From the NCBI RefSeq assembly GCF_041886205.1, contig NZ_CP169029.1: DNA of 64,000 nucleotides. One strand, 5' to 3'. Source of the DNA: Escherichia coli (lineage in GTDB: Bacteria > Pseudomonadota > Gammaproteobacteria > Enterobacterales > Enterobacteriaceae). The translations under genes were made by a program, and so were the position numbers. Positions 44,871 through 44,980 of this stretch are shown one piece after another (the first letter of the stretch is position 1; each line of letters opens with the position of its first letter). Under the pieces are notes generated by a model that did not search any database, was not told the origin of the DNA, and saw nothing but the letters and a program-made list of their open reading frames with translations.

Positions 44871-44960
44871 GCCGGTGCCGGATGCGGCGTAAACGCCTTA
44901 TCCGGCCTACAAATGCGCTCCCCGTAGGTCGGATAAGACGCGTCAGCGTCGCATCCGACA
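44871..44960. repeat. REP units between phnK and phnL
   Basis: GCCGGATGCGGCGTAAACGCCTTATCCGGCCTAC plus GTAGGTCGGATAAGACGCG...GCATCCGACA. Confidence 0.85.
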
Positions 44961-44980
44961 CCCGAACCACGAGGCGAAAA

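Follow-up and report, generated by a model that had tools for sequence, protein, structure and literature searches.

Many genes of the phnCDEFGHIJKLMNOP operon of Escherichia coli overlap or abut, which raises the question of what occupies the spacer that separates phnK from phnL, and whether the palindromes located there influence the expression of the genes on either side. To approach this question, we analyzed a stretch of 64,000 nucleotides from the E. coli contig NZ_CP169029.1 (RefSeq assembly GCF_041886205.1), here referred to as the window, in which the operon is located on the plus strand. The phnK gene, which encodes the ATP-binding subunit of the C-P lyase, was located at positions 44112-44870 (+) and ended with a TGA codon at 44868-44870, as indicated by the open reading frame, its translation, and the annotation of phnK in matching RefSeq genomes. 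The phnL gene was located at positions 44981-45661 (+), according to the list of open reading frames, the translation, and the annotation of strain MG1655. The intercistronic spacer (44871-44980, +) thus covered 110 nt, and contained the ribosome binding site of phnL, GAGG at 44971-44974, which together with the ATG codon at 44981-44983 formed an intact start region (44971-44983, +) on the 3' side of the palindromes. The phnK-phnL region was 100% identical in sequence to that of strains 504239 and ET729, and 99.8% identical to that of K-12-type strains.

In the MG1655 annotation, neighboring genes overlapped by 4 nt (G-H), 1 nt (H-I), 8 nt (I-J), 4 nt (J-K), 4 nt (L-M), 1 nt (M-N), and 14 nt (N-O), and were separated by 0 nt at the F-G junction, 1 nt at the O-P junction, and 110 nt at the K-L junction, which is the same distance as in the window. 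The remaining gaps were those between phnC and phnD (24 nt), phnD and phnE, and phnE and phnF (20 nt), and the K-L junction was the sole sizeable non-overlapping junction in the catalytic part of the operon. An earlier sequence-only reading had described 2 REP palindromes in a 110-bp spacer at 44871-44980, within an operon in which most neighbors overlap or abut. Its spacer coordinates were exact, the gene arrangement was upheld by the MG1655 junctions, and the palindromes proved to be real, as judged from their exact copies, their inverted arms, and their strong fold. We also noted that phnE appeared to be intact in the window (an open reading frame of 280 amino acids at 39591-40433, with a likely true start at 39654), and that this gene is annotated as a pseudogene in MG1655, so that the window does not derive from MG1655 itself.

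The first unit, of the y type (GCCGGATGCGGCGTAAACGCCTTATCCGGCCTAC; 44877-44910), was located on the minus strand, where it displayed GTAGG, with the inverted form ending in CCTAC on the plus strand, and its palindrome started only 6 nt past the phnK stop codon. The second unit, which was z2-like (GTAGGTCGGATAAGACGCGTCAGCGTCGCATCCGAC; 44924-44959, +), contained GTAGG at its 5' end (44924-44928). The 2 units were arranged tail-to-tail around a linker of 13 nt (AAATGCGCTCCCC; 44911-44923), which falls in the short-linker class and is too short to represent an IHF-binding L linker. Three further exact copies of the 34-mer in the first unit were identified in the window (4 in all), with none expected from shuffled sequences. 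The second unit had a copy with 3 mismatches in the phnD-phnE spacer (39552-39587), and its inner part matched the canonical z2 copies at 36947 and 37047, whereas its outer stem was GTCGGA/TCCGAC rather than GCCTGA/TCAGGC.

Both units contained inverted-repeat arms of 14 nt each that were 86% complementary, and were predicted to form hairpins of -22.4 and -22.6 kcal/mol, respectively. The predicted folding energy was -45 kcal/mol for the 2 separate hairpins and -58.5 kcal/mol if the units were paired with each other. The RNA of the spacer, in a context of 130 nt, folded at -60.7 kcal/mol (z = -6.5), and none of 200 shuffled sequences folded as well. The predicted probability of being unpaired was 0.38 for the CGAGGC segment at the ribosome binding site and 0.84 for the phnL start codon.

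The REPs of E. coli have been described as imperfect palindromes of 30 to 40 nt with a GTAG sequence at the foot and a mismatched stem, two features that TnpA-REP requires (Ton-Hoang et al., PMC3333891). Each of the 2 units was an imperfect palindrome within this size range with GTAG at its foot and mismatches visible in its fold; the first unit was noted to read CCGAC in some divergent E. coli strains. The element was extragenic, being confined to the segment between the phnK stop and the phnL start, and belonged to a dispersed, high-copy family: a pattern scan revealed 11 REP units at 6 sites in the window, and a query spanning the spacer matched a median of at least 25 to 27 places per E. 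coli genome. Inversely oriented y and z2 units that are joined by a short (S) linker and mostly form tandem arrays are characteristic of BIME-2, whereas BIME-1 consists of y and z1 units with a long, IHF-binding L linker (PMC3333891). Since the element combines y and z2-like units in inverted orientation, both with GTAG, and a linker of only 13 nt, we assign it to the BIME-2-like rather than the BIME-1 class. The long z2-type loop region of the second unit (GACGCGTCAGCGTC) also spoke against BIME-1. Judged from its sequence, the phnK-phnL element is thus a single BIME-2-like REP doublet, although it consists of one doublet only and the outer stem of its z2 unit is a variant. By its position it should be REP322 or REP323 in the EcoCyc numbering, with REP324 being the pair between phnD and phnE. 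We found no paper that combined the terms repetitive extragenic palindromic, phnK, and phnL. The identity of the element is secure, and it is an ordinary, long-known kind of E. coli repeat. Intercistronic REPs were recognized as early as the 1980s, the sequence of the phn locus dates from about 1990, and in this sense the finding was already known.

Several other identities were considered for the spacer and rejected. An intrinsic, Rho-independent terminator was rejected because no terminator-like sites were identified in the region 44400-45200, and because the second unit is followed by ACCCGAACCACGAGG, which contains no U run. An RNA gene of the naRNA4 type (Rfam RF02564) was also rejected, with scores of 36.4 bits on the plus strand and 42.7 and 29.5 bits on the minus strand against a gathering score of 59.5; the HU/nucleoid model for naRNA4 has itself been contradicted by a 2026 preprint (bioRxiv 10.64898/2026.03.23.713779). 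An open reading frame at 44867-45661, starting with a TTG codon that overlaps the phnK stop and running in frame through both REPs, could be taken to indicate a longer PhnL protein. However, the conserved N-terminal sequence of PhnL, MINVQN, is encoded from 44981 onward and has a GAGG site of its own in all species, the alternative E. coli allele described below carries an in-frame stop codon, and an open frame of 38 codons is unremarkable in GC-rich DNA. Finally, an antisense frame of 93 amino acids across the spacer (44825-45106, -) had no Pfam match, and is probably spurious since the frame is simply open in GC-rich DNA. In some genomes, the PGAP annotation includes a 91-amino acid "hypothetical protein" (WP_162224731.1) that is antisense across the REP spacer.

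We propose, by analogy with other intercistronic REPs, that the doublet acts at the RNA level as a modest mRNA hairpin, which both slows decay and breaks translational coupling, and we consider the chances that this is correct to be about even. In the polycistronic mRNA, the doublet would fold either as 2 hairpins of about -22 kcal/mol each or as a single hairpin of -58 kcal/mol. By blocking 3'-to-5' exonucleases, the hairpin would allow decay intermediates that end after phnK to outlive the phnL-phnP part. The structured gap of 110 nt would also remove any termination-reinitiation coupling between PhnK and PhnL, leaving PhnL to rely on its own GAGG site. The output of PhnK may in turn be slightly lowered, since the hairpin starts within the footprint of a ribosome positioned at the stop codon. 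The expected net effect would be a modest bias toward the upstream genes, with no termination. The doublet was probably acquired through mobilization of a REP/BIME unit by TnpA-REP (RAYT), and would have persisted because the junction tolerates, and may favor, a structured insert.

Parts of this proposal have precedents at other loci. Intercistronic REP hairpins such as that of malE-malF shield the upstream mRNA from 3' exonucleases (Newbury 1987, as cited in PMC6061677), and REPs located less than 16 nt from a stop codon, a position that the phnK-phnL doublet shares, cause ribosomes to stall and reduce the translation of the preceding gene (Liang et al. 2015, as summarized in PMC12306157). 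Among 146 tandem gene pairs separated by REPs, expression was biased toward the upstream gene, with a median log upstream/downstream ratio of 0.96 compared with -0.09 in controls, albeit with wide scatter. What is established for the phnK-phnL doublet is its identity, anatomy, copy number, strong fold, short distance to the stop codon, conservation in E. coli, and transcriptional read-through under induction. An upward step in transcript counts from phnK to phnL in uninduced cells, the lack of a Rho response in REP fragments with 2 to 4 hairpins, and the existence of Enterobacteriaceae with no REP at this junction count against a role at the RNA level.

The conservation of the doublet was examined in 5426 complete E. 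coli genomes, 5387 of which contained the locus. Comparing the spacer across E. coli, as the sequence-only reading had suggested, recovered the REP pair in 4840 genomes, in which a 230-nt query centered on the spacer was covered to at least 80%, and a different insert in 546 genomes (about 10%), in which a query built on a spacer of 176 bp was covered. The 2 alleles accounted for 5386 of the 5387 genomes with the locus, each with a strong palindrome in the spacer. At most one candidate for an empty site was identified among these genomes, and none among metagenome contigs with exact flanks and a gap of 0 to 30 nt.

The 176-bp spacer was first seen in strain HCP4S3_I4, and is unrelated in sequence to the REPs. 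It consists of an inverted pair of BoxC (PIT/TMECO) triplex-motif repeats, the cores of which, CCCTCTCCCTCCGGGAGAGGGCCGGGGTGAGGGG (in reverse orientation) and CCCTCGCCCCTTCGGGGAGAGGGTTAGGGTGAGGGG, correspond to sequences listed under types B and A in Table 1 of PMC4666352, and it was predicted to fold at -95 kcal/mol. Both alleles fill exactly the interval from the phnK stop codon to the stretch CGAACCACGAGGCGAAAAATG, which contains the ribosome binding site and start of phnL and is common to both. The REP allele was always 110 bp, even where the flanking genes differed from the window by up to about 6%, whereas the flanks of the BoxC allele differed by just 0.7% to 3.2%. On the simplest reading of these sequences, the REP pair would have come first in E. 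coli and been replaced later by the BoxC pair. The PhnK protein WP_001039799.1 occurred with both alleles. It was also noted that a contig labeled Pseudocitrobacter faecalis encoded a PhnL protein 99% identical to that of E. coli and contained a phnK-phnL spacer of 298 bp with 4 BoxC-type units, 2 more than the BoxC allele in E. coli, which suggests a tandem BoxC expansion combined with either gene transfer or mislabeling of the contig.

The main rival to the RNA-level reading is that the doublet is a passive passenger, that is, a selfish or neutral mobile copy inserted into a harmless junction with no meaningful effect on phn expression. We regard this as a real but clearly less probable alternative, and the other explanations discussed below as less likely than this one. 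To compare rates of change, we aligned the spacer together with 160 nt of each of the 2 flanking genes from 7 strains, using the window as the reference. The spacer differed at 1 to 4 of 110 sites compared with 5 to 17 of 106 third-codon positions in the flanking genes, and in the 6 more divergent strains at 2 to 4 sites compared with 13 to 17 third-codon positions (Fisher P = 0.0007 to 0.009). This corresponds to an approximately 5-fold slower divergence of the spacer, which argues against a neutral passenger, as do the near absence of an allele without insert in E. coli and in the metagenome contigs and the average shift in expression associated with REPs between tandem genes. Either purifying selection on the hairpins or homogenization within the REP family would explain the slow divergence, and both are compatible with the alignment.

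The comparison across species provided points in favor of a passenger. We scanned for PhnL with one genome per species and identified at least 80 loci, 79 of which contained both phnK and phnL. The 2 genes were non-overlapping in 78 of these 79 loci among the matches listed, which came from diverse bacteria, usually with a gap of 8 to 45 nt. The free junction is thus an old feature of the operon that was not created by the REPs, and the slot appears to be permissive everywhere. Within the Enterobacteriaceae, its occupancy varied from 0 to 3 REPs, and each genus had its own REP sequence type. No repeat was found in Leclercia, an Enterobacter sp., and Citrobacter sp. FP75, in which the spacer was only 7 to 9 nt (e.g. 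TAAGAGGCGAACATG), and the element is thus not required for the pathway. One REP was present in Kluyvera, E. cloacae, and strain RIT691, 2 inverted REPs in C. werkmanii (107 bp) and Pluralibacter (103 bp), and 3 REPs in E. asburiae (160 bp). In every REP-bearing spacer, the first palindrome started 4 to 12 nt past the phnK stop codon and the ribosome binding site of phnL was untouched.

Large GC-rich palindromes unrelated to the REPs were identified in the phnK-phnL gap of Pelagibacterium, Devosia, and a Pseudomonas metagenome-assembled genome (-130, -128, and -67 kcal/mol, respectively). The 2 alphaproteobacterial palindromes, in Pelagibacterium and Devosia, contained BoxC-like motifs (GGGGAGGGGTTAGGGGTGGGGG and GGGAGAGGG...GGGTGAGGGG). 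The pattern across species fits both repeated independent insertion into a permissive slot and repeated selection for a hairpin at this position. Taken together, the variable occupancy in other Enterobacteriaceae and the unrelated BoxC pair in a tenth of the E. coli genomes weaken the idea of a conserved regulator. The transcription of the operon from end to end under induction is also consistent with a passenger.

A different question is whether the doublet acts on transcription rather than on the transcript. The sequence-only reading had suggested that the REPs could stabilize the upstream mRNA or cause polarity, and would thereby partition phnGHIJK from phnLMNOP. In its attenuator version, partial and Rho-assisted termination would cause phnLMNOP to be transcribed less than phnC-phnK, which we consider quite unlikely. 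Directional RNA-seq data from K-12 showed one transcript from phnC to phnP in cells starved for phosphate for 2 h and 4 h, although its level varied or decreased along its length (PMC3734233). This argues that strong termination does not occur at the REP pair. In uninduced cells, low-coverage assemblies broke at the spacer, one sample yielding a fragment of phnGHIJK and a different sample one of phnLMNOP (PMC3734233), but these breaks may be artefacts since reads that map to multiple repeats are commonly dropped. The uninduced counts (baseMean) in another data set were 16 for phnJ, 32 for phnK, 118 for phnL, and 43 for phnM (10.64898/2026.03.23.713779). The count for phnL was thus about 4-fold higher than for both phnK and phnM, and transcript counts went up across the spacer instead of down, the opposite of polarity. 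The general effect of REPs on neighboring genes is established at other loci such as REP325, but these data did not support the proposed partition of the phn operon: a single transcript was assembled under starvation, the count was higher for phnL than for phnK, and the phnGHIJK fragment was seen in one uninduced sample only.

Attenuation by REPs does have precedents. Some BIMEs attenuate transcription, according to references in PMC6061677, and REP325 both stabilizes the yjdM mRNA and acts as a partial, partly Rho-dependent attenuator into yjdN, such that its deletion lowered the expression of yjdM and raised that of yjdN about 10-fold (10.64898/2026.03.23.713779). The first 120 nt of phnL were richer in C than in G (C/G 1.56), as expected past a Rho entry site, and the decreasing level along the operon under starvation, together with the phnGHIJK fragment, points in the same direction. 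However, REP fragments with 2 to 4 hairpins showed no Rho dependence and no response to bicyclomycin in plasmid tests (10.64898/2026.03.23.713779), and the good ribosome binding site of phnL, 9 nt past the hairpins, should shield the RNA from Rho. The missing terminator consensus, the full-length phnC-phnP transcript in induced cells, and the rising counts in uninduced cells also argue against an attenuator.

The phnK-phnL doublet is not the only repeat in this region. The sequence-only reading had also placed a second REP pair between phnD and phnE (39551-39640), and this pair turned out to be real (39552-39638). It consists of a z2-like unit (39552-39587) and a y-type unit (39605-39638) arranged head-to-head in a spacer of 105 nt (39549-39653), which extends from the phnD stop at 39548 to the phnE start at 39654. 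The pair is called REP324 in the MG1655 numbering (supplement of 10.64898/2026.03.23.713779), and scored 69.1 bits against the Rfam naRNA4 model, above the threshold of 59.5. It was present in 3877 of 5392 E. coli genomes. Other genomes had alleles of the BoxC type at this position, which included a collapsed hairpin of 61 bp, an inverted pair of 124 bp, and forms of 73 and 139 bp with an expanded GGGAGA run (O121 RM8352 has about 14 units). All 4 combinations of REP and BoxC at the 2 slots were observed among the sampled strains (A17, A38, Ec-U10, and HCP4S3_I4), which indicates that the 2 dimorphisms recombine. We found no earlier description of the switching between REP and BoxC, flush with the stop codon, at both sizeable gaps of the operon, and this is the only mildly new point of our analysis.

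Two further repeat loci were noted next to the operon. The REP325 locus in the yjdM-yjdN gap (36904-37078) contained only 4 REP units, arranged as two y + z2 doublets, and its score against the naRNA4 model reached the threshold, with 93 to 107 bits at 36903-37079. REP325 in MG1655 has been described as 6 repeats of 2 units, which indicates that the length of the array differs between strains. An inverted BoxC/TMECO pair was identified at 48541-48655, just 3' of the phnP stop (48532). Its first unit (48556-48591, -) was identical to TMECO no. 22 of MG1655 (PMC4666352), and the second was degenerate. The operon thus has REPs as internal punctuation and a BoxC pair at its close.

The presence of 2 REP doublets 5.3 kb apart in an operon of 11 kb could also suggest a role at the DNA level, in which binding of gyrase or another protein to BIME-2-type elements relieves supercoiling in a long, strongly induced operon, and any effects on the RNA are incidental. 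BIME-2 binds DNA gyrase, and the phnK-phnL doublet has the y + z2 layout with a short linker that is typical of BIME-2. However, BoxC pairs of unrelated sequence substitute for the REPs at both slots, which argues for a property at the level of structure rather than of specific sequence. For REP325, neither contacts between REPs nor effects on the nucleoid were found (10.64898/2026.03.23.713779), and a DNA-level role is in our view very unlikely.

The same substitution raises the speculative idea that the phnD-phnE and phnK-phnL junctions are "hairpin slots", which are kept filled by a strong palindrome of any sequence family. We consider this unlikely, but if true, the structure itself would be selected as a barrier to mRNA decay and a breaker of coupling, and would determine in what proportions the transporter, the core complex, and the accessory enzymes are made, and REP and BoxC would be interchangeable solutions that provide a natural allele series for the study of REP function. 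The possibility that the linker of the REP doublet is a remnant of BoxC, with the REPs inserted into an older BoxC allele, was rejected, since local alignments were no better than shuffled sequences or cross-locus controls (P = 0.055 to 0.09).

The supplements of PMC3734233 list an antisense RNA of 481 nt, which we mapped to the minus strand of the window from about 45317 to 44837, such that it spans the 5' portion of phnL as well as the entire REP spacer, with its end about 34 nt beyond the spacer. Either this antisense RNA or a weak internal start could be the source of the elevated phnL counts. No promoter consensus was identified on the sense strand in or near the spacer. That the doublet primarily serves another transcript, as the 3' end or stabilizer of an antisense RNA from within phnL or at the start of a separate phnLMNOP message, is extremely unlikely: although the antisense RNA crosses the REP pair, a phnLMNOP fragment was assembled in one sample (PMC3734233), and the phnL counts exceed those of both neighbors in uninduced cells, the assemblies were of low coverage and from one study, the sense strand has no promoter consensus in or just after the spacer, the only promoter match on the antisense strand (45456-45427) is separated by about 110 nt from the 5' end given for the antisense RNA, and palindromic REPs would fold in any transcript.

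The presence of REPs between phnK and phnL, as originally stated, matters little, and the comparison with the BoxC allele leaves this verdict unchanged. The value of the locus lies in its use as a natural test bed, with one slot in 3 states: a REP pair, a BoxC pair, and no insert in related genera. Whether such repeats tune the stoichiometry of operons or ride along as passengers is still debated for REPs in general.

The doublet was also compared with known elements of a similar kind. With the E. coli REP/BIME-2 elements, which are substrates of TnpA-REP (RAYT), it shares the imperfect palindromes of 34 to 36 nt, the GTAG foot, the stem mismatches, the inverted y and z2-type units, the short linker, the extragenic location just past a stop codon, and the membership in a family of hundreds of copies per genome. 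It differs from them in being a single doublet with a variant outer stem in the z2 unit, located inside an operon rather than at a 3' end. The BoxC/PIT/TMECO repeats resemble the doublet in occupying the same phnK-phnL slot and in forming an inverted, folding pair, but they belong to an unrelated sequence family (CCCTCTCCC...GGGAGAGGG...GGGTGAGGGG) with about 23 copies per genome, which has no known transposase and which acted neither as a promoter nor as a terminator in earlier tests.

REP325, the naRNA4 locus between yjdM and yjdN, is located only 640 nt upstream of phnC, and its units belong to the same REP family and are also placed between co-oriented genes. However, REP325 is a long array, with 4 units in the window and a larger number in MG1655, and was Rho-dependent only as a full array, whereas the phnK-phnL pair reaches only 36 to 43 bits on the naRNA4 model. 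With the intercistronic REPs of malE-malF, the phnK-phnL doublet shares hairpins between cistrons, and with stop-proximal REPs such as nrdAB a short distance, here 6 nt, to the preceding stop codon, and by analogy it may affect phnK in comparable ways.
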